Positions 6,307 through 30,779 of a DNA stretch of 64,000 nucleotides are shown piece by piece. The DNA is taken from NCBI GenBank assembly GCA_963798485.1, contig CAWCTR010000001.1, positions 27,453 through 91,452 of the forward strand. The letters run 5' to 3'. The first letter of the stretch is position 1, and the number at the start of each line of letters is the position of its first letter. The stretch is from an uncultured delta proteobacterium (GTDB taxonomy: Bacteria; Desulfobacterota; Desulfomonilia; UBA1062). Under the pieces are notes generated by a model. It did not search any database. It was not told where the DNA came from and worked only from the letters and a program-made list of their open reading frames with translations. A program made the position numbers and the translations under genes.

Positions 6307-6338
6307 CGCCAGGCCTCGATAGCTTGGCTTTTTTTTTA
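6307..6338 (+). terminator. Intrinsic terminator
   Basis: GCCAGGC-ctcgata-GCTTGGC followed by a T run. Confidence 0.7.
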
Positions 6339-6347
6339 CAAAATAGT

Positions 6348-9300
6348 TTATCGCTGATCTAAAATATCCCTGATCTTCTTCGAAAACTCGGCCATGCTGA
6401 AAGGTTTCTGGATAAAGCCTTTGCATCCGCTTTTCATAATATCCTTTGCCTGACCATCCAGACTGTAGCCGCTTGAAAGCAGCACCTTTACATTGGGATT
6501 TACGCGGCACAAGGTGTCGAAGGTCTCTTTCCCGCCGAAATCGGGCATTATCATGTCAAGGATCACAAGCTCAATCTTATCCCTTGCCTGTTCATAAATC
6601 TGTAGACCTTGCCTGCCTCCGGGTGCTGCAAGCACCTCATAGCCGAGACCCTCGAGCATCTTTGAGCCGATATCCAGGATCATCTCTTCATCGTCAATAA
6701 TCAGTACCGTCTCATACCCTTTCTTAATCTCACCATTTGTCTTGTGCTCACCTGGAACATCTTTATCCGAGGCAGGGAGATAGATCATGAAGGAGGTACC
6801 GAGGTCTTTTTCACTCTCTACATGAATGAATCCGCCGTGATTCTTAATTATACCATATACCGAGGCCAAACCGAGGCCGGTTCCGCGGCCACGCTCCTTT
6901 GTGGTGAAAAACGGTTCAAAGATCCTCTCCTTTACCGAATCTTCCATCCCAATACCGGTATCCGTGACAGTCACCTTTACAAATCTCCCGGGCATGATAT
7001 CATAGGGACTCACTTCAATTTTATCCAGATTGATATTTTCAACAGAGAGGAACAGATCACCGCCGCCGGGCATGGCCTGCCATGCATTCACGAACAGGTT
7101 GAGCATTACCTGCTCCATCTGCCCCCGGTCTACATCAACGGCATATAGATCTTGGGCGACCTTGTGATGGATCCGTATCTCCTTCTTGGTCCTGCCGAAC
7201 ATCTCAGAACTCTTCTGAATGAATTCACCGAGATGAGTAGGCTTTACCTCATACTTCCCCCCCCTGGCAAACCCGAGCAACTGCTTTGTAAGGTCGGAAC
7301 CGCGCTGTACATACTCCTCCACGCTCTTGAGGCGATCAAAGAATGGATGCGATTCGTCAAAGTCCATGAGCATGAGGGATACATTGCCGAGGATGCCCAT
7401 GAGCAGATTGTTGAAGTCATGGGCAATCCCGCCTGCGAGGGTGCCCACTGCCTCCATCTTCTGTGCACGGGTCAGCTGCTGCTCAAGGTTCTTCTTCTCG
7501 GTCATGTCGATGAGAAAGCCCCTCAACCCTGCAGGCTTGCCTTCATGGTTGATTGCAGTAGTATTTATCAAGGCAGGGAAGGTGCTTCCATCCTTTCTCT
7601 TGGCTGTATACTCGTTAAGGCCTATATACTCTCCCCGCAGAACCTTTTGAAAGTTCTGAATTATACGTTCATGATCCTCCGAGACTATTGCCTCCAGGAA
7701 GTTCAAGCCTTTTTCCACTTCTTCTCTCGTGAATCCGAATCGCGCCAGAGAGCTCTGGTTCACAAAGGTCACTCTCCCGTTTTCATCGGTCTCGAAGACC
7801 GTCTCGGGCATGAGGCTTACCATATCCCTGAATCGTTCCTCGCTCTCTCGCAAAGCCTTTTCGGCATTCTTCCGGTCAGTGATGTCCATGAGTGAGGCAA
7901 CACTTATCGTGCTGCCTGGTATGAGGGCTACGCTCAGAAAGATGTCCCTGGACTCACCAGAACGGTTGAAGAACCTGAATTCATAGGACCTGGGGATAGA
8001 ATCGATCCCCTCCCGGCGCCCTTCATGGTAACGTTTCATCCTCTCCAGGTCTTCAGGGGAAACGAACGCCGTCCAGCTCATCTTACCCTCGACCTCATGG
8101 CGCGAGTAGCCGGAGAGCTTTTCGAAATTGGAGTTTACCAGCAGGATCGTCCTCTCCTCCCCGAGCAGCACTGATGCATTCCCCGTGTTCTCAAAGATGG
8201 CGCGGTACCGCTCCTCGCTCTTCTTAATGGCCTCCTCAGCCTGTTTGCGGCTGGTGATATCCCTGACAACGCCACTGAACCCGATCGGTGCTCCATTGGC
8301 ATCCTGCCTCAATGATGCCGATGCCTCAACAAAGATTTCCTGACCTTTCTTATCTTGCAGTTTCCAATCGACATTAGCGATAGTCTCTCCGGTAATGAAG
8401 CAATGATGATATACATTGAAGACCTTCTTCGCATTCTCATCATCCATATATTGGCGGTAGTTAATCCCCATGAGCTCTTCATATGCATAGCCAAGCCGTT
8501 GTGCAGGCCTGGGATTGAAAAAGGTGAAGTTGCCTCTTAGGTCCACTTCATAATATGCCTCTTCCATGTTGTCGAGGATGGTTCGATAACGCTCTTCGCT
8601 TTCCCGAAGGGCCTTTTCGGCCTGCTTGCGTACGGTTACATCACGCACCACTACATGGAACCCCTTTGGCTGTCCCGATGCCTCCCGCATGAGCCCGACA
8701 GACAGCTCGTTGTCATGGAGAGAGCCATCCTTGTGGATCACCTTGTAATCCACCATCAGCTCCGGAGTTCCGGTTGTATACACCCTGTTGAATGCCTCAA
8801 ACATGAGCTTTGCAGTTTCGGGTGTGGCGTATCTGTGATAATTCATGCCAAGCAGTTCATCGGCGTCATAACCGGACATCCTGCATGCAGCTTCGTTGAA
8901 AAACGTAAAGTTTCCAGTCTAGATCGACCTCGAAATAGGATTCCTCCATGCTTTCCAGGATTCTTCTGTACTTTTCCTCACTGATACGCAAGGCTTCCTC
9001 AGACTGTTTGCGCGCTGTGATATCAATATGATTGGAAATACTTTCATTGGTCCCTGGTATGAGGGTAACCAAGGCAAGGATATCCCTGGCCTCTCCTGCC
9101 CGGGTAATAAACCGGAATTCGTAGGATTCAGGTGCAGAGCCCGGTTTCTCCCGCCGCATTCTGTGATAGTCTTTCAATCGTTCAAGGTCTTTCTCGGAAA
9201 TAAAAGATTCCCAGCTCATCTTGCCCTCAATCTCGTGGCGGGGATAGCCGGAAAGCCTTTCGAAATTGGAGTTCGCAAGCAGGATTGTCTTGTCCTCGCC

Positions 9301-9828
9301 TATGAGGATAGTGGCGTTGCCCGTATTCTCGAAGATGGTGCGATAGCGTTCACCGCTCTTTCTCAAGTGTTCCTGGGCATTCTTCCAATTGGTGATGTCT
9401 CGGGCGATTCCCTGGATGGCATAGGGCTCCCCTGACCTATAAATGACAGAAGTCCTTGTCTCCAGCCAGACAAAGCTCCCATCTTTGCGTCTAACCATAT
9501 ATTCGTCGGATTCTTTCTGTGTCCCTGTCTCCCTCAATTCCTGTATGGTGCTGAACACCAGGGGAATTTGTTCGTCGGTAAGCAGCGTGGTCAATGTGAT
9601 AGTGCCCAGCTCTTCCCTGGAGTATCCGAGCAGATTGAAACCGGCATTACTGGCATCAAGAAATTTGCCTTCAAAATCGAGGATAAAGACCACATCAAAA
9701 GATCGCTCAAACAAGGCCTGGTAGCGTTCTTCACTCTCTTTGGCAGCCTCTATGGCCAAGCGGTGTTCCTGCTCAAGGTCCTTGAGCCTCTTTTCCAGTT
9801 CCTCATAGCTGGGCCTCTCACACATCAA
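6348..9828 (-). CDS. Hybrid sensor histidine kinase (6 PAS + HisKA + HATPase + receiver), one frameshift near 8920
   Basis: ORFs 8866-9828 and 6348-8879 join as EVDL-TGNFTFFNEAACRMSG if one base is removed. H-box AGGIAHDFNN, FEPFFTTK, GTGLGL; receiver DMIMP. Confidence 0.93.
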
Positions 9829-9939
9829 CTTCTCCTCCTGGAGGATATAACCGTATCTTTTCCTTTGTCTTGCTAAACAAGATATACGTGTAGCACCTGT
9901 TTTCTCTTTATCGGCATTTCACCATGCTGAGGCTTAGCC

Positions 9940-11799
9940 TTAGGTAATAATATTTTTGAAGCCCCGGCCCCACAGCATGTTGTTCAGGCCGGAGACACGA
10001 TGGGTCCGTCTGGATACTGCGGCAGAGAATATCTCCATAGCGGCCCAGATCTCGATTGCGCCCCTGGCCCTGGTTATGCCGGTATAGACGAGTTCCCTGG
10101 TGAGCACGGGAGAGTCACGCTCCGGCAGTATGAGCAGCACGTTCTCGAACTCGGACCCCTGGCTCTTGTGGACCGTCATGGCAAAGGCGGTCTCGTGTGC
10201 CGGCAGCCTTAAGGGTGAAATCTTTCTGACAGACCCGTCCCTAGCCACAAAGCAGGCGCGCAGGTCATCCCCATCGCTTACGATGAGCCCGATATCGCCG
10301 TTCATGAGCTTCAAAGTATAGTCGTTTTCTGTGACGAGCACGGGCCTGCCGTGGTAATGCAGCCTGCCGGGCTCGATCAGGCCCGCGCCCTGCAGGATCT
10401 CCTCGACGCAGCGATTCAGCGCCTTTACACCGTATGGTCCTTCGCGGACAGGGCTCAGGATGCGCAACGTCTCGAAGAGCTGGAAGCACTCATGGATGTC
10501 GTCCGAAACAAGAAAACTTCCATATCTCTTGGTGACGATCTCTCTCAGTGACCTTTTCAATTCTCCCGGCAAAGGCAGTTCCTGCCGGCTAAGATCCTTT
10601 CCGTGGCCTGAGTGGAGTATCTCAAGGGATCGGCTGATATCTCCCGAGTTTACTGCCTCGCCCAGGGCGAAGATGGCGCTGTCTTTGCTGAACCGGTAGG
10701 TCCGGGTGAGCTCCACCAGCGAGTCCTGCATACCGCCTTCATCGCCTGCGGGCACGGCGCACCCTGTGGTCCTGGCCACAAGCCCGGCAAAGTCAGCCGA
10801 ATAGGCGTGCGAGCCGCCCACATCGCAGATATCCCCGAGCACGTAGCCTGCCTGAACGGAAGCGAGCTGATTTTTGTCGCCCAGGAGGATAAGGCGGGCG
10901 TTTTCCTTGAGGGCCTGGACGAGGTATGACATGAGGGCCAGGTCCGCCATAGACGCCTCATCTATGGCGATGACATCTGCACTTAAGGGGTTTGCTGCGC
11001 AGTGCCTTGGCAGTGTTGACCCGGGAGAGAATCCGAGGAGCCTGTGGATAGTGGTGGCCTCGTGGGGGATCATGGCCTTGATCCCCGGTGCGCAGTCCAT
11101 GAGTTCAAGGCTGCGCTGGATGGACTCTTCGATCCTGCGGGCCGCCTTGCCCGTAGGGGCCGCCAAGGCGATCTTCAGGTGAGGCTCCTGCTCGAGGAGC
11201 AAAGCCATGATCCTGCAGACGAGCGTGGTCTTGCCCGTGCCCGGCCCGCCCGTGATCACGCATAAACCCCTGGATACGGCAGCCGCAGCCGCTGCCTTGT
11301 GCCGGTCATGCCCGTCGGTCCCGTCCGGGGGAAACATGCGAGCGAGCCCCCTGGTGAAAAGGGCTTCGTCAAAGGGCATGACCCGGGCGTTCAAACGCAG
11401 CAGGACATCGGCCAGTCTCCGTTCGTTCTCATAGGAACGGTGGAGATAAAGCCTGCCTGACCCGTCCAGGATCAGGGGCCGATAATCGCCCGGGCCGCCC
11501 ACTACCGGGCACAACCTCAGGGCTGATATCCAGGCATCAGGTGATGGCAGGTCCAGGACAGCAGGCCCGGCTTCTTTGCCAATCATCCCTGTATTGATTT
11601 CGTTCAGATCCAGGCAGGTGTGCCCTTCCCTGCTGAGCCTGCTCACAAGGGCCGCTGCAAGGGCAAGCTCAGCGCTCTTCGAGCCTGCAAGCTGCACCAT
11701 GAACCGGGCGAAGTGCACATCAATGGGCTCGAAGAGACCTTCGGGCAGCATCAGGCCCTGCTCAAGACCTTTCTTGAAGTCAACAGCATCATACGCCAT
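9940..11799 (-). CDS. recD: Exodeoxyribonuclease V alpha subunit
   Basis: ITGGPGTGKTT, APTGKAA, TIHRLL, DEASM, GDKNQL, TVHKSQGSEF and YTGITRA motifs. Confidence 0.96.
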   Translation of the reverse strand: MAYDAVDFKKGLEQGLMLPEGLFEPIDVHFARFMVQLAGSKSAELALAAALVSRLSREGHTCLDLNEINTGMIGKEAGPAVLDLPSPDAWISALRLCPVVGGPGDYRPLILDGSGRLYLHRSYENERRLADVLLRLNARVMPFDEALFTRGLARMFPPDGTDGHDRHKAAAAAAVSRGLCVITGGPGTGKTTLVCRIMALLLEQEPHLKIALAAPTGKAARRIEESIQRSLELMDCAPGIKAMIPHEATTIHRLLGFSPGSTLPRHCAANPLSADVIAIDEASMADLALMSYLVQALKENARLILLGDKNQLASVQAGYVLGDICDVGGSHAYSADFAGLVARTTGCAVPAGDEGGMQDSLVELTRTYRFSKDSAIFALGEAVNSGDISRSLEILHSGHGKDLSRQELPLPGELKRSLREIVTKRYGSFLVSDDIHECFQLFETLRILSPVREGPYGVKALNRCVEEILQGAGLIEPGRLHYHGRPVLVTENDYTLKLMNGDIGLIVSDGDDLRACFVARDGSVRKISPLRLPAHETAFAMTVHKSQGSEFENVLLILPERDSPVLTRELVYTGITRARGAIEIWAAMEIFSAAVSRRTHRVSGLNNMLWGRGFKNIIT

Positions 11800-11956
11800 T
11801 TGTTTTGACCCTTTACTCATCAACAAGTATAATATCAGTTCATCCGGAACAAGCCTTCTTTGCCAGGCACTGAACATAACTTGCTTTGATCGTATACTTT
11901 GCTTTCATCATGAATACTTTGCATTGATCATATATCCCTCCCCAATCGACAATCAG

Positions 11957-12390
11957 GTCCCCTCCCCCCTTGCGGGGGAGGGACAGGGAGAGGGGTATGA
12001 ATAAAATTAATCTCCAACGAGCAAGAGATCTGAGAAAACGATCCACAGACGCGGAACGCCTCCTGTGGAAGCACCTCCGCACAAAGAGGATGAACAACCT
12101 GAAATTCAAGCGGCAGCAACCAATCGGTAATTATATTGTGGACTTCATCTGCTTTGAGAAAAGGATCGTTATCGAACTCGACGGCGGGCAGCATGCACTC
12201 CAGAGAGACAAGGACAAGGGGCGCGACTCCTGGCTGGAAGGCCAGGGCTTCCTCATCCTGAGATTCTGGAATAATGATGTCCTCACCAATATCCATGGTG
12301 TCATGGAGGTTATCATACGTACTTGTTCTGAAGCCCATAGCCTTTAATCTGCCCCCTCTCCCTGTCCCTCCCCCTTGCGGGGGAGGGGAC
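11957..12390. mobile_element. DUF559 nuclease gene enclosed by ~38-bp inverted palindromic arms (family A, gene-carrying form)
   Basis: 11957-11995 GTCCCCTCCCCCCTTGCGGGGGAGGGACAGGGAGAGGGG is the reverse complement of 12352-12390 except for the loop. The arms abut the start and stop codons, and the unit separates recB from recD. Confidence 0.7.
11997..12347 (+). CDS. DUF559 / Vsr-like endonuclease domain protein
   Basis: RARDLRKRSTDAERLLW, KFKRQQPIGNYIVDF, IELDGGQH, RDSWL and LRFWNNDV motifs. Confidence 0.93.
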   Translation: MNKINLQRARDLRKRSTDAERLLWKHLRTKRMNNLKFKRQQPIGNYIVDFICFEKRIVIELDGGQHALQRDKDKGRDSWLEGQGFLILRFWNNDVLTNIHGVMEVIIRTCSEAHSL

Positions 12391-12509: not shown

Positions 12510-16375
<3,866 letters not shown>

Positions 16376-16382
<7 letters not shown>

Positions 16383-19300
16383 TTGCCAGCCTCCAGAGAG
16401 TCGATGAGAGGACCGTACACCGTCATGGCCAGCTCGCGGAACTCGTCATCCAGGGGATCAGTGCCTGCAAAGCAGATCCGTATGGCCGCATCTTCGCTTT
16501 CACCGCTCTTATTCCAGCCCCCGCTCCAGGCCTTGCCAGCCTCCTGCATGGCCCTCTGTTCATTACCCGTCTTCTTCATGTGCTCTGCATAGGCGTACGA
16601 GCTTTTGGGGAAGAAATGGAGCGGCCGGCACAGGCCCTGCCAGTACACGTCCAGGAGCCCCTTCAGCACGGCAAAAGGCTCCTCCCCAGAGCTGATGCAG
16701 GCCTGCCCTGCCTTGTGGATGTGCATGCCCGCTACCTGCGCACCCGGGCTCACGGCCTTGAGCAGGAGCACGCTGACCCAGGCCCGCATGAGGTCGCCCG
16801 GTTTCAGGTCCGCATAGCGGAACGAGAGGAACCCGCCGCGGCCAAGACAGTCAACTGCCCCGGTGATCGTGAAGGCGCCCACGGTCACGCTCACGTCTTT
16901 CCTGACCATCTCATAGCCCGCCATGGCCCGCCTGATGAGCGGGAGGAAGGCATCGATCTCACTGGCAATGCCTGCAAGCGCCAGCTCTCCCGGCACGCCG
17001 TGGGGCAGCACCCCTTCGGCCCTGAGCCGTGCCACGTCCGTCTCGCAGCCCTTTCCTCTCAGCCTCTCAGCCAGGATCCGCTGCTGCAGTCCGTATTGAT
17101 CGAGACCCGTTATGGCAAAGGGCTCCCGGTCGAGGAGTGCATCTTCCTCCCGGGGCAGCACAGCGCCAAGGCGGTGCCTCAGGAAGAACCGGGCCGGGTT
17201 CCGGAAGAACTCCAGGAGGCGCTCCATGTTCACGCCCAGCCATTCTTGCTCGGGTTCGGAAAGCCTCACCGCCTCCCCCTGCCCTGCCTGTGCCCCTGTG
17301 CGGAGCGCCCTGGCAGCGTCCGCATTGTCCCTGGAATAGCTGAACAGGCCCGTGCCTGCGGTGAAGTATTTGGGGTTGAAGGCCTGGAGGCAGTGGCGCT
17401 TCACCACTCGCTTGCTCACCGGCCCCTCCGGGCTCGTAAAGGCCCTGTCGAGGTATTCCAGCAGGCTGCTCACCACCACCGAGGGCGGGATAGCGGCATT
17501 GTCCTGGATGCCCTGGCCCACGTGGCTGATGGAGAGCACGTTACGGGCCGAGAGCAGGGCCTCGAGGAAGAGGTAGAGGTCGTCTTCGCGCCGGGAGCGG
17601 TCGCCCTTGCGCGGGTGCATGGACATGAGATCGAGCCCGCTTGCGTAGTCCCTGCGCGGGAAGGATTCATGGTTCATGCCCATGAGGCAGATCACCTTGA
17701 ACGGGATGCTCCGCATGGGCAGCATGGAGCAGAAGGTGACCCCGCGCTCCAGGAACCCGGCCCCTTCCGCGGCACTGCCGAAGGCGTTGCCCAGGTGGTG
17801 CCGCACCACGTCACAGCTCACCGTGCCGGTGAACCCGGCATCCCGCGCGATCTTCTCCAGGTTCCGCACAGCGGATTTCAGCCGCAGAAGCTCCGAAGGG
17901 TCTCCTCATCCGCAGCAAACAGGTCGTCGATGATCGTGAGGAGCACCTGTGACCATTCGCCAAGCCCCCGCTCCTGCCTGAGCTCGTCGACTATGGCAAA
18001 GAGCCTCTCCACGAAATCCACAAAGCTGCCCAGGAGATCTGCCGAGGCAGGGTCCATGCCGGTCAAGGGTGCGATGCCCTCGAACAGCTCTTCTCCCCCG
18101 CCATGGCATAGCCCAGCAGGAGCCTCTTCAGACCGAAGCCCCAGGTGTTCTCCTCAAACCCGGGCAGGCCCATTGCCTCTTTATCACGACCGTCCCTGCC
18201 CCACCGGATGTTGGCCCCAGTAACCCATGCATGGACCTTCCTCACCGCCTCCTCGTCCATGCCGAACCGCGCCCGCACCGGCGCCTTGTCCAGCAGATCC
18301 ATGACGAGCGAAGCCTCGAAGCGCTGCCCAGGCAAATCGAGCACAGCCATGAGCGCATCCGCCAGCTGGGAGCTGCGCCTGAACGACCGGTCCGAGATGC
18401 TGTAGGGTATGCGGCGCGAATCCCCCCTATCCATATCGAACACGGCCCGTATAAAGGGCGCATAAGACTCAATATCAGGCGCCATAACCAGCACGTCCCG
18501 CGGCTCCAGCCCTTCCTTGCCCTCCTCCCCCTCCTTATCTTCCTCTCCCCTCTGGGGAGAGGACTGAGGTGAGGGGTACCTTTTACCCTCCTCCCCCCTG
18601 GTGGGGGAGGATTGAGGAGAGGGGGACAAAGGAGAGGGGGAATTCTCGAAGAGTTCCAGCAGCGTATCCAGCAGCACCTCCACCTCCCGCATGGGGCTGT
18701 GACACGAGTGCACCTGGATAGAGCAATCGCCAACCTCCACCTCCTCCGCCCCCTCATCGCCGCTCGTCCTCAAATTCAATATGTCATCCTGAACCTTAGC
18801 CAGCATGGTAGCTCGCCCGCCCCCCACAAACAAATCCGTCTCCTCAGGCTCCAGATCAATGACCATGTCCAGGAAGTTCCTACCAAGCCTGCCCATGCTT
18901 GCCAGAAGATCATTGCGCGATTCCAGGTGCAAATCCGCCTCCGGCACCTTGCTAACGAACCTGGTGATGCGCCTTTCCGGCATGATGTCCGCCCAGTATT
19001 CCCTGCAGGGGTTCAGGCAGTAGAGGCTGACATCCATCAAAGCGGAAAGACCCTTCAGCACCTCCAGATGGAATGCAGGCAGATACGAGATGCCGAAGAT
19101 GGACACCCTCTCGGGCAGCTTCGACACATCCGAGCGCGCAAGCCCGCTGCTGAAGAGCTGCTTGAGCCGGGCGCGGTGGTTCGCATCGTCCCCTTCAACA
19201 ATCTTGTTCCAGAGCACGGCCTGCCAGTTCTCCGGGTAGCCCGCAGGCGCATTGCCGCCCTCTTCCCACCCGAGCACCAGCTCGGGCCTGAATATGACAT

Positions 19301-19715
19301 ACTGGTCATAGATGTTCGCCATCATGGCGCTGAACTGGTAGAGCTTCATGCCTGCAGTGTCGCCCTGGAGGTAGTCCCTGATCCGGCTGAAGCCGCCCAA
19401 GCCCAGGAGCCCGGGCAGACAGTCCATGATGCGCAGCGTCATGGCATCCTTCTCGAACAGAGCGGGCTGCGTGACCCCCGGCAGGATGCGCGAGAACATG
19501 TCCAGCACAAAGGCATTGGGAAACGGCCAGCTGACGTTCGCGCACACCCCGCTGCTGCGCGCCAGCTCCATGGAGAGCCAGCGCTGCATGCCGCGGCTCT
19601 GCACAACGATGACCTCGGGAGCAATCGGCGATGAGAGCGGTTCGGACAAAGATAGAGCAAGGGCCTGCGAAAGGACCTCGAGCCGGTTGCTCTCAATAAG
19701 TCTCAGGCCTGACAA
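16376..19715 (-). CDS. recC: Exodeoxyribonuclease V gamma subunit; frameshifts near 18090 and 17880; in-frame repeat insertion
   Basis: SNRLEVL, VVQSRGMQRWL, LNPCREYWADI, HSCHSPMREVE, PRDVLVMAPDI, FCSMLPMRSIPF and FLEALLSAR motifs; upstream of recB. Confidence 0.95.
18511..18640. repeat. Two tandem family A palindromes inside recC
   Basis: 18541-18576 TCCTCTCCCCTCTGGGGAGAGGACTGAGGTGAGGGG and 18588-18625; they encode PSPQSSPTRGEE and PSPQSSPQRGEE. Confidence 0.88.
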
Positions 19716-20995: not shown

Positions 20996-21149
20996 GATCA
21001 CCTCAATTGTGTAATTATGCATTCAGATTGCACGATTGCACATAGCATGTCAAGAGGTCTCCGTTTTATGTCAGGGCTTTCAGTTTGACACGCCCTGAAC
21101 CGGAATGTACTATTACTATATAGCCTGTGGATAAAGAAAAGGGGAAGTC

Positions 21150-21383
21150 ATGAAAAATCCGATGAAACGGATCGAATTGAACCCGAAGGTATGCAATGGT
21201 AAACCGTTCATCAAGGGGACGCGTATTCCTGTATCTGTTATCCTGGAGCAGATAGCAGAAGGTGTATCCTGGGATGATCTCCTTAAGGGATACCCTGAAC
21301 TTGTGAAAAACGATATCCAGGCTGCCTTGATCTATGCCAGAGAATCTCTGGATCATACAGAGATCCGGACGGCACATGGCTGA
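21150..21383 (+). CDS. DUF433 domain protein (putative antitoxin)
   Basis: RIELNPKVCNGKPFIKGTRIPV...YPEL...DIQAALIYA. Confidence 0.92.
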   Translation: MKNPMKRIELNPKVCNGKPFIKGTRIPVSVILEQIAEGVSWDDLLKGYPELVKNDIQAALIYARESLDHTEIRTAHG

Positions 21384-21468
21384 GCGATACAGGATATACC
21401 TGGATCAGATGTTCCGGGTATATATTTCTGTACCTTTAAGGAAGGGAAAAACTGGGGGAAATCAGTGA
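21376..21468 (+). pseudogene. Truncated PIN-like (DUF5615-type) toxin remnant
   Basis: Overlaps the DUF433 stop, starts MAERYRIYLDQMFR and ends after 30 codons inside a repeat arm. Confidence 0.55.
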
Positions 21469-21556
21469 AAGCAATTAAGGTATGGAAATCAATCTGTTTC
21501 AGTTTTGTCCTCTAAAAATCAGTATGGTGTCCCCAGATTTTCACCTTTCCCCTGGA
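21447..21556. repeat. Family F (GGGGAC-type) imperfect inverted repeat at the left edge of the AT-rich island
   Basis: AAATCAGTATGGTGTCCCCAGATTTT (21516-21541) with a degenerate opposite arm AAAAACTGGGGGAAATCAG. Confidence 0.55.
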
Positions 21557-22823
21557 GTTCACGCCTAAATTTCTAGAAGGGAATGCCTTCGTCCTCCTGG
21601 TTAATAGACATCTCAAATAAATTTACCGGTGGTAACGTTGCACCCTTGGGATCCAACCTTCCAATTAGCTTGAATCGACCGACGTCGATAAGACCACCCA
21701 CATCGGTGGCTAACTCTCTTATATGCTCCGTCACTACGCAGATAGATTGCTTGTCATTGACTCTAAACTTGGTCTTGGTCTCTGATTCGATTCGCGCACA
21801 GAGGGGTATTGCGGTTGACCAACCGAGATCAGTTATTTGCGAATCAATAAATGGACTCGTCTCTTTGGTCGAGCACATCGTGTAAACGAGCGCCACTCCG
21901 AGACGCGATGCTACGTGCCGCAGGGCAAAAGCTGTCCGAATAGCTGCGTCAATATTCTTAATACGAAGCCAACAACCATCGTTGTCTGACGTCTCAATAA
22001 ACACTGATGCATCGGTTGAAAACATCGACATTAACTGGCGCTGAATGGCCTCTATAATCTCCATACGATTCTTTGGCTCGTAGCTACTTGAATTAGCTAA
22101 ATCATATAGAAGGACGATTTCATTCTGGACGGGCTCCTTGATAAGTTCAGGAACAAGATGTTGCACGTATGATTCATAGATATCGCTGACTATGCGGATC
22201 ACAGTATCTGCATGTTCAAACACACTCTGTTGAACAGCCAATACTAAATCGGCGGACACTAACAAAGGAGGGCCTGGCAAAGTGAAACGACGCATATGTG
22301 GGTATTTTTCGAGCAGTGTCGAAAGCGCACTTCCCACCTCCGCCCAACGAGACGCAAGGTCAATTTCAGGGATGCTATCCCGTTCATCCCGAATCAGGCC
22401 GCAGGTGGAGAAAAGAGTGCGAAAGTATGTCGTCAGTTCACGAAGTAAATTATTGAACCAATAGAGTATCCCTATAATGTCTCGATTTCGAGGACTGAGT
22501 TCTGGATTAATAATCGATTTAAGATACTTATTTGCAAATGGCTCTAGAGCAAAGAAGGGTGCTCTCTCATCGGTGAACAAAGCAGAGATTCTACTACGTA
22601 AATCGAGCCCAATTGCTTTGAATACTTGCGCCTTGTTTCTGGCTTGTAGACAGTATGTTGCAAGGTTTTCAAGCGTCTTTGCAATCTCATTGAGTAGACG
22701 TTGATATTCTGTAGCCGTATTGTCGCCGTGTAAGTCCAAAAGATCATGCCATGATTTCAGTAGGTACTCAATATTGTATTTTGGGTGCCTAAACCAAAGC
22801 CGAGGTAATTCACGAACAGCATC

Positions 22824-23446
22824 AGTCATAACCTCCGGCAAAGCCGGAGGCTTGATTAAACCATGAACCGCTCAAAGCGGTTTAACCCGAGTACCTTTGT
22901 CCCTAGCTGAATATGTTCATCTGCTCAAGCCGCTGGTCTTCTTGCTCCTGCTTCTTGATGTATGACCGGACAACTTCCTCATCCATCCCTACCGTGCTCA
23001 CATAGTAGCCCCTGGCCCAAAATTGCTGACCCGTGAAATTCTTCCTCCGCCCCAGGTATGCCCGTGCTATATGTATCGCACTCTTCCCCTTGATATACCC
23101 GATCACTTGGGATACCGAATACTTCGGCGGGATCGATATCAGCATGTGTATATGGTCCTGCATCAGATGCCCTTCGATAACTTCGCTCTCCCTCTGTATG
23201 GCCAGTCTCTTCATCACCTCACCAAGATACTTCCTCAACTGCCTATACAACGCCTTCCTTCGATATTTCGGTATCCATACAACATGATACTTGCATTCCC
23301 ATCGGGTGTGCCTTAGACTCTGTTCTTCTTCCATGTTTTGCCTCCTCTTCTGTAAACTTTGAGCGGTTCACAGTTCGGAGGCTCTTCAATTTTCCCGGAA
23401 TTGTCAAACTCCGGTGAGTCACCCCGGCATAGCCGGGGGTTTACCT
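22824..23446 (-). mobile_element. IS200/IS605-family insertion sequence (tnpA only, ~623 bp)
   Basis: Subterminal hairpins CCCCGGCTATGCCGGGG and CCTCCGGCTTTGCCGGAGG; GAACCGCTCAAAG inverted at both ends; no target duplication seen; inserted after TTAT. Confidence 0.92.
22903..23334 (-). CDS. tnpA: IS200-family Y1 (HUH) transposase
   Basis: KYHVVWIPKYRRK, DHIH (HUH), IKGKSA, FWARGY and SYIKKQ (catalytic Tyr) motifs. Confidence 0.97.
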   Translation of the reverse strand: MEEEQSLRHTRWECKYHVVWIPKYRRKALYRQLRKYLGEVMKRLAIQRESEVIEGHLMQDHIHMLISIPPKYSVSQVIGYIKGKSAIHIARAYLGRRKNFTGQQFWARGYYVSTVGMDEEVVRSYIKKQEQEDQRLEQMNIFS

Positions 23447-25668
23447 ATAAGAAATTATATCTTCCTGTTTGCCGCACGTGGAAAGAGCAAGTAGGCGTTC
23501 ACCGGGAACACCTGAAATCGAGTTCACCGCAGTATCATCGCCAATAAAAGCCAAACAAGTCTGCACAAAACCCGATAGATCAGGCAAAAGATGACGATCA
23601 TCAAGCGGTGAATTTTGAAGTGGGTTTCTTCGGATCCATTTTTTCGAGATACTTATTTCTGTACGGCTACTTTTTCGTTCCACATTAAAGAGTCCAATGT
23701 TCTCTCCCCAATTGGCAAGCGTTTGACGCTGGCCTTCTGTATTTGGTTCAACACGTGCACCAAATTCGTCAATCACTCGTTTTAGCTGCAGGTCCCGCAT
23801 GTCAGGGTGATGGCGAAGCCCGGAAAGAAGAACAGCGGATGCAATTTTTTCGAGCATAAACTCCGACAACCATTTACGCTTCTTACTGTATCTTGGAATC
23901 TGTTTCTGCAACTCAAGGACAAGACATGCCATAAAGTACTGAGTTTTCTTTGCCTTTGTACCATATCCGTTCTCGCCATATCTGTAGACTCGGAGCCATC
24001 GCCCTGGCTCGTTATCGTATGGCACATCAAAAACAAATTGAGGAACTGCTGCACCGGTATCCACAAGCTCATCAATTGCTTCAGATAGCTCATATTGAGT
24101 AAGCTTCTTTTTCGAATTCAGAAGGTATCTAAGTTCACCAACACTGAAGCCCACAGAGAGGCGTCTACGTCTGTCTGTTCTGAGTGCACGCTCTCTACGT
24201 TCATGCTCGACGTATGAAATGTTTAGCAACTCTCCGATCAATTCCGTCGATGTTCTCTCTGCCGGTGAAATCGCTTTGAACGGCTCTAAGGATTTCTGAA
24301 CTAGCACGTTTCGTTTGAGCCTCTTTTGTACAAGTTCGGAAGCTTTATCGTATGATGACGACGGATGATCAACATCTGTTGCTATTGTGGGATGCATGCT
24401 CGACCATGTTAGAAGTTCGGTCATTTTATATAAAACTTGCTTCCCTACAATTGGACCGAATAGGTACACAAGGTCCTCAAACGACCAAGAAAGTTCTGAC
24501 AAGTCAACTTGAAGAATGTTGCCGAGAGACAGCTTTTCCCAAGCTTGGCCGAGAATGTGAAGACCGCAAAGGAAGTAGGCAAGAACGTAGGTACGATAAG
24601 AAATACAATCTATATCCGGGTCATGGTTGCAGAATTCTCGGTTTAGGACACTTCGAATTAAGTCGCCATAAGGGTTGTCTACACCAACAGTTTCCTGTTC
24701 AAATAGACTGGCTCTATCTGGTACCCATTCAAACACATGCATTGGAACGATTCTGACCACATTAGTGTCGAAATAGAATCGAATTTTGGAAATGCCTGTT
24801 TCCGAAATACCCAACGTATTCAGAAACGATGGTCGAAATGCATTCTCAGTAAGATCAATACTAATACTCCTCGCACCATCAGATGCGTCACCGACTTTCC
24901 ACACTGCATGGGGAGATATGAGCTTCTCGATCTCATGTATTACTTGTTTTTGCTCAATACGAAGCGGGGCGTTTGCTATAGGATAGTCCAGATCGAACGG
25001 TTTACAGAGTCGACCCATAGCTGTTACTAGTGCATTGTTAAATGTTGATGCTTGCTTAAAGGTCAAACCGAGTGCATATCTTGGTCGGACCAATTCGGTA
25101 TTCAGTTGATATGTATTAATTGCTATAGCATAAGGGATTGGCTTACCTCCACAAGCTGAAACGAGTTGGCATACGTATTTCAAGGTACTACCGTAGATCG
25201 CGATATCATCTATAACAGGAACTTCCTCCCCCTGGAAAAACTCATGCGGTAGGAAAGCGAGACTGCGGTCGGTTAATACCTCCAACCCGTGAAGGTGTTT
25301 CTGTAGTGGTCCCCGTTTGCATATGTCAAATAATCGTGGCCCCTTGCGAGCAAGCGCGACAACATATCTAGCACCAGTGCCTTGGATATCTTCGAGAACT
25401 TTTTCCATGGCATCGTGATAGCGATTCTCAAAAACAGTTTCGTCGTTAATCAATGAGAATGATTTATCGTTCATTGGGAATATGGTTTCTTTATTGGCGA
25501 TAGCAGTCCATAACATCGTATCCATCTGTTCCATACCCGAAACTTGCAACCAATGCAAATCAAAATATCCAGTGTTGTCACCCATATCATAATTTCTAAA
25601 AAATTAACATCATTGATACCCGATTGAAGTCCAGCATTTTTTATTTAGGTTGATGTTCTGGAATAAGT

Positions 25669-25770
25669 AAAGGGGACGTTTCTATTTTCCACTCTCCGTT
25701 ACAAATATTAAATAAATAGAAACGTCCCCTTTTTTCCCCTTTTTTCCCCGAAACGTCCCCTTTTTTCCCC
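25669..25770. repeat. Family F perfect 19-bp inverted repeat with a tandemly re-copied 3' arm
   Basis: AAAGGGGACGTTTCTATTT (25669-25687) and AAATAGAAACGTCCCCTTT (25714-25732), then CCCCTTTTTT repeats and a second GAAACGTCCCCTTTTTTCCCC. Confidence 0.9.
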
Positions 25771-25913
25771 TCAATCTAACTTACTTATTGCATCCTTTTG
25801 ATAAGCCTAAATGATGGTCAAATGCCTTATTTCGGATGAACATAAAAAATGATTCCTCCATATTTGAATATATTACACATAACCTTTTTATAGCTTACAT
25901 TTTCTGTCCTGTT

Positions 25914-28268
25914 TTACCCAATCATATCATTAACAAGAGAAAGGAGATGACGTCCTAGAATACCGTTATCCAGAAATGTTGCTATCTCTTTCCGTAAGTC
26001 CTTATCATCAGATATATTGAGTAACCAATCAATGACATTTGTTATGAAGTGTTTTTCAATTAACTTATGACTTATAAGCAATTCCCATATCCTATCATTA
26101 TAGGGATTGCCTGGCTTGAATCCAGTCTTATGATGACGATATCGAATGGTCTGGAATCCATAATCACCTTTGAATTTCTTAAGTGCTCTAGTAAGAGCAT
26201 CTTCTGCCAAAGCTTTCTTTATTTCTAAACTTATGCCAGTTTTTCTGATTTTGTTAAGTTCATACTCAGATTCCTTTGAGCAACTTGGGTCGACAATCTG
26301 AATCTCATTTTCATTATCACATGAAATAAATGATAGTGTACCATTGAATATGGAATTAATGAACTTGCTTTCAGTTGAAAAGATACAGTTTTTAAACTCT
26401 ACATCTACAAATGTACAACTTATGAATTCAGTATTACATAAATCATATGCTTTCAATTGACCTGTGAATGTCGTTTTACGGAACCTTATGCCATTCTTCG
26501 ACTGTTCGGCCTTCAGAATAGTAGCCAATCGCTTTATACGTTCCTGCTTGTCTTCACCTAGTACGAGCCTGCTGGCGAGATGAAAAAGAGCCATTGATGA
26601 TGCTTTTTGGATATCACTGAATTCAAAATTTTGTTTGTCAGAGATGATATCCATTGCATGATGCATTGCAGAAAGTAGCCTGACTTCATCAAGAGCTCGC
26701 AATTGACGAATCAGCCAATCAAGTACTTGTGTTTTTCCAGTACTGTTCTCAGCAAGAAGTCGGGCAATCTTTGATCTATTTGTCTTTCCTGTAGTATTTA
26801 TTAAACCAAAGGCCAAGAAACGTGCGAGAAAGTATACACAAAGAACCTCATATCTTGGTCCGAACTTTTCTTTGTCTAGCCGTGCGAGAAAAACATGACT
26901 TGTAAACCTCTGTACAACTGATTGGTCTTTTACATCACAGATTATCTCAAGGAATAACCGCAGATCATCTAATGTAAAAGATTCCGGAAATTCTCTAAAA
27001 AGTTCCTCAAATAACTTAAGTTGGACTTGGGGGTCTATCTCAAGTGTTTGGCGTTTGTTTTCGCGGCGACAAATATCTTCGAGAAGACTCGCAAAAGGAT
27101 CGGACTTATAGGGATTAGCTTCTGCATCTGGATTATCATGTACATAGCGTGCTATAAGATCAAGAATAAAAGGTACACCAGATGGTTTGTCTTCATTCAA
27201 ACCTTCCTGTATGATTTCTTCATACACTCCCCCGCTCACTTGCTTTGATATCCTATAAGCAACATCGCGTTCTGAAGGATTAGAAAGGCGTGCGGTAAAG
27301 TATCTTTTTCGCTGTCTGTTATCAAAACCTTTAAGTCTGTAAACACTCAGTGCAGAAGTGTCAATGTCATCCTTAACAGATTCCCAAAAAGTTTCACGTG
27401 CAGTTAGGAGAATTCGAGCTTGTGGAGAGTCATCCTCTGGAGTAGCCAGTTCTATCAATTCTTTTAGGATCTCATCTGGTCGAAATCCTCCACCAGGGAC
27501 TACACATAATTCATCGAAACCATCAAAGATAACTAGAAAAAGTTCTTCACGAACTAAAACTCTTAATGCTGTTTCGTTACCCATTAGACGACTAGCATGA
27601 TCAAAACGCCGAGAAATAGCTCGATCCCATACAGTATTCATTGTTAGAGCTGCCTGCTGGATTAAATGTCTCCATTGATCTGATTCAACAAGAATGGGAA
27701 TAACATTTTCATCTTTTGAATGAAGTCGTTGGCACAACATTCGTGCTACTGTTGTTTTTCCGACACCACCATTAGCAATCAATACTGATATTCCTGAAGA
27801 TGTTTCAATACCAGTTCGTCTAAGCATCCATTCAGAGAGAACCTTTGTAGCTTCGTGTGCGCTTCGGCCATCTGGTAATTCTATATCAGGATCAATAAAA
27901 TATTCATTTTCTGGTACTGGTTTCCAAGAAAAGTTATTTAGGAAACTATCAATTAATAGCTGTTTCGATGTTCTTATGGAAGTAGAGCTAAAAGTTGTTT
28001 TTGTTTGAGATAAATTCTTAGCCAGCTTACTGCCAGGCGTAACAATAACTTCATAACTCGATCCCTTACTCCATTCTTTCCAAAGTCGAAGGTTTTCTGA
28101 TGTAGCCTCCTTCATAGGACATTTATGCTTTAAATACAAATATGAACCCTCAACATTAGACACAGGGGTTCGGTACACAGCTTTCCAAAAATCCCAGTCT
28201 TTCGCTTCGTGTATAAGGTCTATTTGGCTTGCCCCAAGTGTGGAGAGTATCTCATTGAAATGTTTCAT
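25914..28268 (-). CDS. NACHT/STAND-type NTPase with C-terminal pentapeptide-like repeats (putative antiphage protein)
   Basis: Walker A IANGGVGKTT, Walker B VIFDGFDEL, ILLTARE and GVPFILDL; periodic F....F repeats; AT-rich. Confidence 0.85.
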   Translation of the reverse strand: MKHFNEILSTLGASQIDLIHEAKDWDFWKAVYRTPVSNVEGSYLYLKHKCPMKEATSENLRLWKEWSKGSSYEVIVTPGSKLAKNLSQTKTTFSSTSIRTSKQLLIDSFLNNFSWKPVPENEYFIDPDIELPDGRSAHEATKVLSEWMLRRTGIETSSGISVLIANGGVGKTTVARMLCQRLHSKDENVIPILVESDQWRHLIQQAALTMNTVWDRAISRRFDHASRLMGNETALRVLVREELFLVIFDGFDELCVVPGGGFRPDEILKELIELATPEDDSPQARILLTARETFWESVKDDIDTSALSVYRLKGFDNRQRKRYFTARLSNPSERDVAYRISKQVSGGVYEEIIQEGLNEDKPSGVPFILDLIARYVHDNPDAEANPYKSDPFASLLEDICRRENKRQTLEIDPQVQLKLFEELFREFPESFTLDDLRLFLEIICDVKDQSVVQRFTSHVFLARLDKEKFGPRYEVLCVYFLARFLAFGLINTTGKTNRSKIARLLAENSTGKTQVLDWLIRQLRALDEVRLLSAMHHAMDIISDKQNFEFSDIQKASSMALFHLASRLVLGEDKQERIKRLATILKAEQSKNGIRFRKTTFTGQLKAYDLCNTEFISCTFVDVEFKNCIFSTESKFINSIFNGTLSFISCDNENEIQIVDPSCSKESEYELNKIRKTGISLEIKKALAEDALTRALKKFKGDYGFQTIRYRHHKTGFKPGNPYNDRIWELLISHKLIEKHFITNVIDWLLNISDDKDLRKEIATFLDNGILGRHLLSLVNDMIG

Positions 28269-28586
28269 TCTATGCCACCTCCTCGTAGTGTAAATTATCG
28301 ATAGAGAAGAGATGCCTTTGGGGGGTACTCCTCTTTCATGAAATAGAATACATTAATCAAGATATTAATATTACACAGGCATATTACATCTTTATATATA
28401 AAATGGAAACGATTTATTTGAATTAATGGAGAAATCGGGGAACAGGTTCTCATTTCCCATCCAATTTATAGCCCCCCGAACTTTGCATATGGAATGCCTC
28501 CATATTGTGGTATTACGTGATCACAGATGGATAATTGCATACTTGTCTTTTCCCAAACCCTGAACCAAGACTAAGCAGGCCGTTGA

Positions 28587-30779
28587 ATGTCTATCGAGCG
28601 TAATTTTGATATCCCCCTGATCGCCTCCATGGCGCTCAAGGAGAAACAGATACAGCAAAATTACCGGCCCATCATCGCCGTGCATAAGTGGTTCGCCCGC
28701 AGGCCCGGGACCTTGTTCCGGGGGCTGATCCTGTCCGAATTCAGCAACGAACCCTTATCCAAAACCTTCTTCCACGCAAATGACTTTCCCCACAAGACCA
28801 TTGCTGACCCATTCATGGGTGGCGGTACGCCGTTGATCGAGGCCAACCGCGTGGGGTGCGACGTGCTCGGATTCGACATCAACCCCATGTCAACTTGGAT
28901 CGTACGCGAAGAGATCGAACACCTTGACCTCAATGCCTATGGCATTGCTGCACGGGCATTGATCTCGGACCTGGACAAGGAGATCGGCGGTCTCTACCGT
29001 ACCGACTGCCACATCTATGGGGACAAAGACGTGCCGGTGAAGTACTTCCTCTGGGTAAAGGTTCTTCGCTGTGAGAAATGCGGGAAAGACATGGACCTCT
29101 TCCCCGGATACCTTCTTGCACAGAACCGGCGGCACCCCCGCAATGTTCTTATCTGCTCACAGTGCGGGGACCTCAATGAGATAGAGGACCTGCATTCCCT
29201 GGGGCAATGCACGTTATGCAGTGAACCGCTGAAGCTGGAAGGGCCTGCCAAAAAAAACCGGTGCACATGCCCGCACTGCGGCCATACGAATACATACACC
29301 CGGCCTGCGGACGGTCCGCCTCGGCACCGGCTATTTCGCCTTGGAATACCACAATGCCCGGCGCAAGGCCGTCCATATTGGCAGGTTCTTTAAGAAACCC
29401 GATGCCCAGGATCTGGCCCGGTTCGACACTGCCGGGCAAAGATGGCGATCCCTCGAACCTTTATTTGTCCCTGACCAGAACATCCTTGCCGGCGATGAGT
29501 CCGACCGGCTCCACCGCTGGGGCTACGGCAGATACCGGGACTTGTTCAACGAACGCCAGCTCCTGGGCCTTGAGCTCAGCTGCCGCCTCATCGCCGCCAA
29601 TACAAACGAACGTGTTGGCAGGCACTGGCAACGAACCTCTCGGACCTGCTGCGGTACCAAAACATGCTGTGCCGTTATGATGCAATGGCGTTGAAATCGC
29701 TGGACATCTTTTCCGTGCATGGATTCCCGGTGGGCCTGGTCCAGTGCGAATCCAACATGATCGGGATCATCAACGGCTCTGGTGCACCGGTGGGTTCCGG
29801 TGGCTGGAAGAACATCATAGAAAAGTATACAAGGGCAAAGAAATACTGTGACATGCCCTTTGAGACCCGGCAGGTAAACGGACGCAAGGTGATACTGCCT
29901 ATCAAGGGTGAATGGATCGGCGAGCAGCAAAACGGCGGCCCCAAGAGAAAGATTGCGATCAAGTGCATCAGTTCGACCATGGCAGAGATCCCGGAGCAGA
30001 GCCTGGATGCAGTATTCACCGATCCACCCTATTTCGGGAATGTTCAATATGCCGAGCTGATGGACTTCTGCTATGTATGGCTGAGACGCCTTGTGGGAAA
30101 CGGACCGGATGGTTTTGACCAGGAGTCAACGCGGTCCAAGGACGAGCTGACCGGAAACGAGACACAAAAGCGCGGCATCGAGCATTTCACTCAAGGATTA
30201 TCATCGGTGTATCAACGCATGGCCCTTGCCCTGAAACCTGGCGCACCGCTTGCCTTCACCTTCCATCACAACAAGATGGAGGCATACCATGCAGTGGGTG
30301 TGGCCATCCTCGATGCAGGGCTCGTGTGCTCGGCCACCTTGCCATGCCCGGCTGAAATGGGAGGGTCGATCCATATCCACGGCACCGGCTCTTCCATTAT
30401 CGACACGGTCTTTGTTTGCCGTGCACATGGCACTGTCAACCGCAAAAATCTCTTTCAGACTTCCGCTGAACTTGTCGAGTTGGTCCGTGGTGAGATTGAA
30501 CAACTGAGCGCTGCCGGAATGACACCGACTGCCGGTGATATCCGCTGTATCGTGTATGGACACTTCACCCGCATGGGTATTTGGAACCTCCGCACGAACT
30601 GGGACCCGGCAGTGCCGATTGCAAAACGCCTGAAGATTTTTACTCATGCTGTCTCCCACATGGGAGACCTCCAGGATATTATCCACCAAATTACCATGAA
30701 GCCTTTCGAATCCAATTTGCGTATAGCTGAACCACACCAGCTCTACGGATGTGAGGACTGTGATGCCGTTTCCTTTTGA
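28587..30779 (+). CDS. Adenine-specific DNA methyltransferase with Zn ribbons (DUF1156-like N-terminus); frameshifts near 29340 and 29630
   Basis: HKWFARRP, motif I DPFMGGGT, four CxxC pairs and motif IV FTDPPY across three consecutive ORFs. Confidence 0.9.

Follow-up and report, generated by a model that had tools for sequence, protein, structure and literature searches.

A gene split by an IS200-family element in an uncultured delta proteobacterium is predicted to encode a phosphoribosyltransferase fused to a class III cyclase

The closest described parallels to the protein considered here are the effectors of type III-A retrons, the ShosT toxin of the ShosTA system, the cyclases of Pycsar, and the multidomain class III adenylyl cyclases. 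PRTase-CE families mark retron type III-A effectors (PMC13712802), the effector of Retron-Eco11 is described as a phosphoribosyltransferase (PRTase) with a winged helix, whose activation lowers phosphoribosyl pyrophosphate (PRPP) (PMC12746101), and the toxicity of ShosT is stated to require PRPP binding (PMC12961424). EAD7 is described as a domain that recruits effectors to conflict systems based on nucleoside triphosphatases (NTPases) (PMC7159879), and cyclic nucleotide monophosphate (cNMP) cyclase domains are reported in conflict systems linked to STAND NTPases (PMC8195603). Here, we describe a gene in a stretch of 64,000 nucleotides from an uncultured delta proteobacterium (GenBank assembly GCA_963798485.1, contig CAWCTR010000001.1), which is called the window throughout and supplies the coordinates used below. 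The gene is interrupted by an insertion sequence (IS), and its intact product is predicted to join a type I PRTase to a class III nucleotidyl cyclase. No PRTase–cyclase fusion was found described in the literature, with the proviso that the supplementary domain tables of PMC7159879 and PMC8195603 could list one. The individual domains and the idea of nucleotide-directed conflict proteins are known; their combination seems to be new to the literature, as does the family as a unit.

Two open reading frames (ORFs) on the minus strand, one of 714 amino acids (aa; 23441-25585) and one of 422 aa (21573-22841), flank a third of 143 aa (22903-23334). A search with the N-terminal half returned five proteins, every one of them 1070-1088 aa in length and covering both halves in order. 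The C-terminal half matched residues 654-1070 of the homologue P0001 with 40% identity (E 3e-96) and P0004 more weakly (E 2e-9), and in a joint alignment the two halves abut inside a conserved stretch (...TCGKQE...PRLWF). Since full-length homologues match both ORFs, and since the halves abut in this way, the two are, as judged from these alignments, parts of one gene of ~1090 aa that is interrupted by an IS200-family element. An original prediction, made from the letters of the window alone, had reached the same view, and the intact homologues bear it out. The contrary view, that these are naturally separate genes with an IS lying merely in their intergenic spacer, can point to the fact that both ORFs are open and that the C-terminal half has candidate starts at the end of the IS (TTG 22841, ATG 22829). 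It is hardly credible, given that all five close homologues, and 77 of the 97 family proteins of at least 950 aa, are single polypeptides spanning both halves. Furthermore, the stop of the N-terminal half (23441-23443) and the listed TTG start of the C-terminal half both fall in IS sequence that is common to copies elsewhere, and removal of the IS gives one frame with a single match to the family profile.

The original prediction had put the length of the rejoined protein at ~1129 aa, which holds when counting from the first ATG (25585). The N-terminal ~50 residues of this ORF are absent from the homologues, so the true start is probably Met38 at 25474, giving a protein of ~1090-1092 aa. The gene had also been called AT-rich, and this agrees with its G + C content of 43-49%, within a region (21000-28500) of 32-49%, compared with 57-64% in the low-coordinate flank and 51-58% in the other. 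There are no tRNA genes near this island, within 15000-36000, and a scan for promoters and terminators over 21000-28700 gave no more sites than shuffled sequences did. The interruption leaves this genome's gene inactive as a single polypeptide, and it looks recent, because both halves are still open and keep all family-conserved residues but one.

Like IS200, the inserted element is ~620-630 nt long, encodes a Y1 transposase of ~140 aa, has a subterminal hairpin near each end and no terminal inverted repeats, and is flanked on the left, in every copy, by a short conserved TAAT/TAATT sequence; nothing unusual was seen in the window's copy by comparison. Its own genome has a single copy; of 51 other genomes from the same order, 11 contain relatives of it, at up to 93% identity. 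Eight diverged copies from the order have a conserved left end, TAATTTnnnnnAGGTAAACCCCCGGC (TAATTT...), starting from window position 23457 with unrelated flanks beyond, and TAATT stands before the left end in all nine aligned copies (as TAAAT in L008). On the right, the aligned copies conserve the hairpin, with similarity fading within ~8 nt past it. In a freshwater-sediment metagenome run (X1), one contig of 2180 nt matches the window without differences over 627 nt, at 22831-23457, with both flanks unlike; because the identity ends there, these positions bound the IS together with its left-flank target. The segment common with the other copies is the same and includes the probable target TAAT(T) at 23454-23457. 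More diverged copies are common in contigs from peat and sediment metagenomes.

Removing exactly these 627 nt leads to stops. The frame stays open when either 22831-23453 (623 nt, TAAT retained) or 22831-23456 (626 nt) is removed, both within the common segment. In the IS200/IS605 family a four-base target is retained at the left end, and for that reason we prefer 22831-23453. Removals of 629 nt outscore those of 623 nt by ~7 bits against homologue profiles, a gain that only reflects two fewer residues and so does not decide the junction. The element had originally been placed at 22824-23446; taking out that segment, which equals 22831-23453 in length, does give an open frame with no internal stop, with borders ~7 nt off and three or four residues changed at the junction. 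In four metagenome runs, where the flanks of the gene were barely covered (only 23841-24000, in X1), no contig joined across the IS as an empty-site allele. We infer the exact junction, predicted to read TAAT | TATGACT, and the cleavage sites from these comparisons.

The architecture of the intact protein was approached through AlphaFold2 models of the N-terminal half from Met38 (77 aligned sequences; predicted local distance difference test score, pLDDT, 89.8; predicted template modelling score, pTM, 0.92) and of the C-terminal half (pLDDT 88.3), which were compared with 48,161 chains using VIA-align, independently of Foldseek. In the two models taken together, the type I PRTase is followed by a region of alpha/beta and helical structure, a pair of winged-helix-like domains, a helical bundle, and finally the class III cyclase (Table 1). 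For the PRTase domain, VIA-align ranks 1-16 all have the type I PRTase fold and are mostly named PRTases (Z 9.7-12.2), the best being 4z1o_A (Z 12.2, root-mean-square deviation (rmsd) 2.4, 125 residues aligned). The Foldseek matches listed were all PRTases (E 8e-3 to 3e-2). The family profile matched the purine PRTase 1vdm in the PDB (E 0.0049), and the PRPP loop aligns with the PRPP loops of 1vdm and of APRT and OPRT chains. PF00156 was detected in 10 of 44 homologues with a best E of 7e-9; P0003 scored 27.2 bits against a cut-off of 26.3. Across the family, the PRPP loop VIDDIAIYGST and the RKGPR loop show little or no variation: all 77 rows of the alignment have R43, D89, D90, and G95, and almost all have T97. 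In the model, the N-terminal domain folds as a type I PRTase and its PRPP loop is intact.

Downstream of the PRTase, the first winged-helix-like domain holds the family-invariant motifs D..D.G..VP and R.GE and resembles 7a6h_P, 2mh2, 1tbx_B, 4nb5_A, and 1yyv_B (Z 6.7-7.4), and the second resembles the winged-helix regions of ORC/Cdc6 proteins (Z 6.9-7.8). Both assignments are made with moderate confidence, because Z values of ~7-8 are near the noise level of VIA-align. Residues 508-677 (23444-23953) also matched a chain of the Mycobacterium tuberculosis DarTG complex, 7yk3_D (Z 9.6, rmsd 3.9, 142 residues aligned), with a score exceeding those of the winged helices for the same region. A search of the ESM Atlas gave nothing for the middle region. 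The helical region that follows contains a lysine, K64, in 77 of 77 rows. Its likeness to NasR, to the four-helix bundles of chemoreceptors, and to designed bundles (Z 9-11) was set aside as helical-fold noise.

The model of the C-terminal half has helices at residues 1-220 and an alpha/beta domain at 236-405. For this domain, VIA-align ranks 1-23 are class III cyclases (Z 12.2-17.4), headed by 3et6_B (Z 17.4, rmsd 2.5, 166 residues aligned). For 21 of these 23 the rmsd is 2.5-3.8 over 145-177 residues; the remaining two, both full-length membrane cyclases, give poor alignments (rmsd 20.1 over 242 residues and 12.3 over 198). GGDEF domains reached a Z of just 9-10. Foldseek found 88 PDB chains at E<=0.001 with the C-terminal half, those listed being class III adenylyl or guanylyl cyclases throughout, and TM-scores were ~0.7 to catalytic-domain chains such as Ma1120. 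In the model, the last ~187 aa have the class III cyclase fold. Both metal-binding aspartates and the transition-state arginine are kept, and on this basis cyclase catalysis is predicted. The family cyclase profile was also aligned, using hhalign and for residue register only, with three canonical cyclases of the same genome (E 0.0016, 0.36, and 0.1); in the first two alignments both aspartates fall on the aspartates of the DIxxxT and GD motifs, which is supportive only, because the alignments are weak. A genome-wide search with PF00211 found three other cyclases and missed the fusion locus, and the ESM Atlas gave just weak leads (0.82) from P0001 to Guanylate_cyc clusters. Class III catalysis requires a head-to-tail dimer of cyclase domains; modelling two copies of the C-terminal half as a complex gave a score of 0.00, which has no bearing either way on dimerization.

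Much of this architecture had been anticipated. The original prediction named a type I PRTase, located RKGPRL and VIDDIAIYGSTL at the positions where they are found, expected a long helical region, and proposed a class III cyclase with both metal-binding aspartates and with proline in place of the usual asparagine; all of these agree with the results above. The two winged-helix-like domains were absent from it.

Table 1. Positions of the interrupted gene, its predicted domains and residues, the inserted element, and the adjacent NTPase gene
Feature	Position	Strand	Basis
N-terminal part of broken gene	23454..25585	-	ORF list; match to P0001 (1070 aa), 43% identity, E 1e-165
C-terminal part of broken gene	21573..22830	-	Stop at 21573-21575; P0001 residues 654-1070
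Predicted type I PRTase domain, model residues 13-157	25004..25438	-	VIA-align, Foldseek, profile, conserved loops
RKGPRL loop	25331-25348	-	Coordinates checked
PRPP loop VIDDIAIYGSTL	25181-25216	-	Coordinates checked
First winged-helix-like domain (moderate confidence), model residues 405-502	23969..24262	-	AlphaFold2 model and VIA-align matches
Second winged-helix-like / alpha+beta domain (moderate confidence), model residues 508-641	23552..23953	-	VIA-align matches
All-helical region, C-terminal half model residues 1-225	22149..22823	-	AlphaFold2 model; links winged-helix part to cyclase
Predicted class III nucleotidyl cyclase homology domain, C-terminal half model residues 226-412	21588..22148	-	VIA-align, Foldseek, residue counts
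Metal Asp of LLYDL	22101-22103	-	D241, 76/77 rows
Metal Asp of NDG	21978-21980	-	D282, 76/77 rows
Arg of CARIES (Asn...Arg pair)	21792-21794	-	R344, 75/77 rows
Pro in the Asn position	21804-21806	-	Coordinates checked
Val where 74/77 relatives have Arg (68) or Lys (6)	21885-21887	-	Strand after second metal Asp, consensus RxG
IS200/IS605-family element, tnpA only, best border estimate	22831..23453	-	Aligned copy ends, identical contig copy, frame test
tnpA, Y1 (HUH) transposase, 143 aa	22903..23334	-	Pfam Y1_Tnp (PF01797), E 8.1e-38, 129.7 bits
Left-end subterminal hairpin of IS, CCCCGGC-TAT-GCCGGGG	23422..23438	-	Read from sequence; kept in other copies
Right-end subterminal hairpin of IS, CCTCCGGC-TTT-GCCGGAGG	22832..22850	-	8-nt inverted repeat, 100% complementary; kept in other copies
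NACHT/STAND NTPase, 784 aa, C-terminal pentapeptide-repeat region	25914..28268	-	PF05729 E 3.9e-9, nSTAND3 1e-6

A profile search of 1.84 billion representative sequences, clustered at 50% identity and with relatives included, puts the size of the family at 1053 clusters at E<=0.001, 732 at <=1e-10, and 202 at <=1e-30. From it, 153 proteins were collected, including the 97 of at least 950 aa mentioned above, 77 of which match the cyclase-domain profile. Wherever the sources name them, the members are titled 'hypothetical protein'. Record titles place them in Acidobacteriota, Magnetococcales, Solirubrobacterales, Zixibacteria, and Chitinophagales, and within the phylum of the window a match was found in just two of 401 sampled genomes, one being the window's own and the other weak. 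Of the cyclase-class loci, 17 with the window included, two are broken by mobile DNA: that of the window and L024. In the latter, from Bryobacterales, the homologue lies in three pieces (4632-5507, 7785-9767, and 11639-11989), between which are a 506-aa ORF that Pfam does not recognize (5607-7127) and a gene for a DDE_Tnp_1_4 transposase (9810-11225).

The C-terminal position of the cyclase can be taken by other domains. Among 17 cyclase-less relatives scanned for C-terminal domains, a cytidine/dCMP deaminase occupies the cyclase position in four, accompanied by EAD7 in P0067, P0073, and P0078 and without it in P0080. A fifth, P0098, has a retron-type PRTase-CE there (E 4.9e-39), and the remaining 12 show no recognized C-terminal domain.

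There is also a shorter class of ~830 aa, represented by 45 loci (L021, L042-L089), mostly from gut metagenomes, which has the PRTase and middle module and no cyclase and keeps only the N-terminal 630 positions of the profile. An ORF of ~615-650 aa on the same strand comes next in 41 of the 45 loci, overlapping or at most 28 nt away; in the other four a shorter ORF is next, in some of them where the contig ends. An additional ORF of ~240-385 aa is present in 39 loci. From this arrangement, the ~830-aa protein and its two partners look like a conserved three-gene unit. Neither partner in L021 has a Pfam match.

Upstream of the fusion gene in the window is a gene for an NTPase of the NACHT/STAND type, whose match to PF05729 reaches 37 bits against a cut-off of 26.7. 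The N-terminal ~150 residues of this NTPase are without a family match, and its pentapeptide repeats match PF13576 weakly (E 3.3e-4). With a G + C content of 32-42%, the lowest in the window, it differs from the fusion gene, and no homologue of it stands beside other family loci. From these comparisons it is probably a separate gene rather than a conserved partner. More generally, no neighbour recurs in the 16 other cyclase-bearing loci once near-duplicate loci are put aside, in agreement with the original proposal of a single-gene system. That proposal also placed the gene among NACHT, restriction–modification, and toxin–antitoxin genes; the NACHT gene is there, and the other two kinds are borne out in part only, by a sub-threshold DUF1156 match and a DUF433 ORF (below). 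Across 12 of the cyclase-bearing loci, 34 neighbouring genes were annotated, three of them belonging to mobile elements (two DDE transposases and one terminase-like nuclease). In the Solirubrobacterales locus L022, the homologue is followed on its own strand, after 28 nt, by pyrF (11223-12065), the gene for orotidine-5'-phosphate decarboxylase, an adjacency that touches PRPP and pyrimidine metabolism and, as a single case, may be chance.

How these observations should be read in terms of function is less certain than the architecture. The account that we favour, with about as much doubt as belief, is that the protein is a self-contained conflict protein, anti-phage and of the abortive-infection type, acting on nucleotide pools. 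In this account, the winged-helix and helical middle would sense a trigger, possibly nucleic acid, and then activate two enzymes. Of these, the PRTase would use up PRPP or transfer phosphoribosyl to a target, like the retron III-A effector and ShosT, and the cyclase would turn a nucleoside triphosphate (NTP) into a cyclic nucleotide and pyrophosphate, as a signal or as a drain on the NTP pool. We favour a conflict role because the family is sporadically distributed and its member in the window sits next to a NACHT NTPase gene within a low-GC island, because the C-terminal slot of relatives holds effector-type domains along with EAD7, and because the N-terminal module of PRTase and winged helices resembles the retron III-A effector. 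It is also favoured because genes for BrxL and Piwi adjoin one homologue each, and because the L024 homologue, like the gene in the window, is broken, in that case by a DDE transposase. A bolder version would make this a new single-protein anti-phage system in which winged-helix sensors control both nucleotide-directed enzymes, the PRTase builds or consumes a phosphoribosyl compound, the cyclase makes a non-canonical cyclic nucleotide, possibly from the PRTase product, and the relatives with a deaminase or PRTase-CE are sister systems on the same chassis. A non-canonical product is conceivable because the asparagine of the cyclase is replaced and no base-specifying pair is recognizable; as a whole, this version is unlikely.

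Several findings weigh against a conflict protein with two active enzymes. At the level of annotation, Pfam and NCBIfam gave nothing for either half of the window's protein; the N-terminal half has no Pfam match at E<=0.1, placing it below the gathering threshold of PF00156, and PF00211 matched neither the C-terminal half nor any of 44 homologues at the same limit. PADLOC recognized no family, its single weak hit being to ShosT. A scan of viral contigs gave 29 pattern matches and no relatives, which is not evidence of absence, because just two peptide patterns were used. The assignment of the middle domains as winged helices depends on Z values of ~7. Within the cyclase, the transition-state asparagine is missing: the window has proline, and across the 77 rows the position is Glu in 33, Val in 9, Gln in 8, Ala in 7, Ile in 7, and Pro in 4. 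Class III cyclases specify their substrate through a residue pair that is Lys/Asp for ATP and Glu/Cys for GTP. In the consensus of this family, the position four residues ahead of the second Asp has neither a conserved Lys nor a conserved Glu, and no base-contacting residues were recognizable. The window copy alone has valine at the position of a near-invariant Arg/Lys, the sole family-conserved position that it has lost; from the alignment, this change may represent early decay or a weakened cyclase, so that the enzyme of this genome may have been weak even before the insertion. With respect to genomic context, known defence genes account for just two of the 34 annotated neighbours, BREX BrxL in L034 and a Piwi/Argonaute in L035, and the others outside mobile elements are unknown or, for the most part, housekeeping genes (a piece of rpoC, gyrA/parC, RND efflux, SCO1, pyrF, and transporters). 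The enrichment in defence islands that had been expected of homologues is therefore not clear: a defence role is plausible, and the enrichment is weak.

Several of these points find a natural place if the protein is instead an ordinary signalling cyclase, in which a PRTase-like sensor of PRPP, a purine or pyrimidine nucleotide, or (p)ppGpp controls the synthesis of cAMP or cGMP via the helical linker for metabolic regulation. Signalling cyclases are ordinarily built in this way, with a ligand-binding domain at the N-terminus joined by a helical linker to the cyclase at the C-terminus, the top Foldseek matches of the C-terminal half are the holoenzymes of Rv1264, a phytochrome-cyclase, and soluble guanylate cyclase, and no partner gene would be needed. 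PRTase-like domains act as PRPP or ppGpp sensors in regulators, and the fold matches of the PRTase domain include PyrR (1w30, Z 10.5), PurR (1o57, Z 8.2), and the ppGpp-bound 5vog (Z 10.5). The mostly housekeeping neighbours, with pyrF directly downstream in L022, would also fit. We nevertheless regard this as somewhat unlikely. Presence in two of 401 genomes of the phylum, together with a scatter over unrelated phyla, would be odd for a housekeeping regulator; relatives place a deaminase with EAD7 or a PRTase-CE, which are effector-type domains and not signalling outputs, where the cyclase would be; the gene sits within a low-GC island; insertions break two of the 17 cyclase-class loci; and the PRPP and RKGPR loops are invariant, as for an enzyme.

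Another alternative is that just one of the two enzyme domains is catalytic, either with a nucleotide-binding pseudo-enzyme cyclase regulating a PRTase effector or with a ligand-binding PRTase and the cyclase as sole effector, draining NTP or producing a signal. The missing asparagine and the Val of the window copy are in line with a single active site, as is the presence among the fold matches of 6yii_A, a cyclase-like protein that only binds ATP (Z 10.1); the variable C-terminal effectors of relatives, on a constant N-terminal module, suggest that the C-terminus is the effector and the module the sensor. It is decidedly unlikely in view of the conservation of both sites: in the cyclase, 75-76 of 77 rows retain the metal aspartates and the Arg, and in the PRPP loop the two Asp and the Gly never vary and the Thr hardly does; because both domains are conserved at this level, two active sites fit. 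The remaining alternative is a two-gene system in which the upstream NACHT/STAND NTPase senses an invader and activates or recruits the PRTase–cyclase as its effector. The two genes share a strand and the low-GC stretch, with 328 nt between them; relatives carry EAD7, which PMC7159879 describes as coupling effectors to NTPase cores, and cNMP cyclase domains have been reported with STAND systems (PMC8195603). The lack of a NACHT gene or any other recurrent neighbour at the 16 other cyclase-bearing loci, the lack of a detected EAD in the two proteins of the window, and the different G + C content of the two genes make this very unlikely.

Other genes in the window show further disruptions. On the plus strand, 28587-29393, 29261-29680, and 29664-30779 are overlapping ORFs that look like one frameshift-broken gene; the first matches DUF1156 below threshold (21.6 bits, cut-off 24) and contains ...FMGGGTP..., a motif that we take to be methyltransferase-like, and nothing else in the window recalls the restriction–modification genes of the original proposal. 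The DUF433 ORF of 77 aa (21150-21383; E 4.9e-23) is followed only by an ORF of 44 aa (region to 21468), and a terminator-like hairpin lies nearby at 21394-21423. If this ORF was once part of a toxin–antitoxin-like pair, its partner seems, from the ORFs present, to be truncated. Two recombination genes on the minus strand each occur as two ORFs: recC as 18063-19715 (Exonuc_V_gamma), with a low-complexity tail rich in Ser, Pro, and Glu at its end, and 16376-17869 (RecC_C), and recB as 15060-16382 (UvrD helicase) and 12510-14345 (UvrD_C, PDDEXK). These splits could be frameshifts, assembly errors, or genuine.

The significance of the family depends on which account holds. If it is defensive, it would add a large, widespread group of ~1000 clusters that current defence finders miss, and would link PRPP-directed PRTase effectors, such as those of retron III-A and ShosT, with the class III cyclases of Pycsar, which have so far been in separate systems. 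The exchange of the cyclase for a deaminase with EAD7, or for PRTase-CE, on a constant N-terminal module suggests a modular chassis that can be mined further. If the protein is a PRPP-sensing signalling cyclase instead, it would provide a new input domain for cAMP/cGMP signalling. For the annotation of this genome, two 'hypothetical proteins' become one IS-inactivated gene.

Compared with known systems, the likeness to ShosT lies in a PRTase-fold domain and in the weak PADLOC match at the PRPP-loop region (E 0.003). This match covers only ~45 residues, the architecture is different, and ShosT pairs with the DprA-like antitoxin ShosA, no counterpart of which is conserved beside the fusion family. 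Multidomain class III adenylyl cyclases (Rv1264, CyaB, and photoactivated enzymes) have a regulatory N-terminus, a helical linker, and a C-terminal cyclase in common with the fusion, together with the two metal aspartates and the transition-state arginine; they differ in that here PF00211 is blind to the domain, the asparagine is replaced, and the distribution is sporadic. A PRTase as the N-terminal domain of such cyclases was not found in print. With Pycsar, the fusion shares the class III cyclase fold, and Pycsar cyclases are among its matches (8jsz_B, Z 14.8; 7r65_A, Z 12.9; 8jsf_B, Z 12.2), although the matches to canonical adenylyl and guanylyl cyclases are no worse (Z up to 17.4). Pycsar consists of two genes, with a separate effector that binds the cyclic nucleotide, whereas here no partner gene is conserved, no cNMP-binding domain occurs among the 34 annotated neighbours, and the cyclase is fused to the PRTase and winged-helix-like domains. 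The effectors of type III-A retrons, for example that of Retron-Eco11, differ from the fusion in that it is three times longer and has a cyclase domain; the best N-terminal match to PRTase-CE reaches 24.7 bits (P0078) against a cut-off of 27, with none for the window. A reverse transcriptase was found neither in the 34 annotated neighbours nor in the 13 scanned ORFs of the window near the gene; no search for non-coding RNA was made. The likeness extends to the N-terminal type I PRTase fold with its PRPP loop, the winged-helix domains that follow, and a role, suspected here, in phage conflict through the nucleotide precursor pool, and one relative of the fusion, P0098, carries a true PRTase-CE at its C-terminus.

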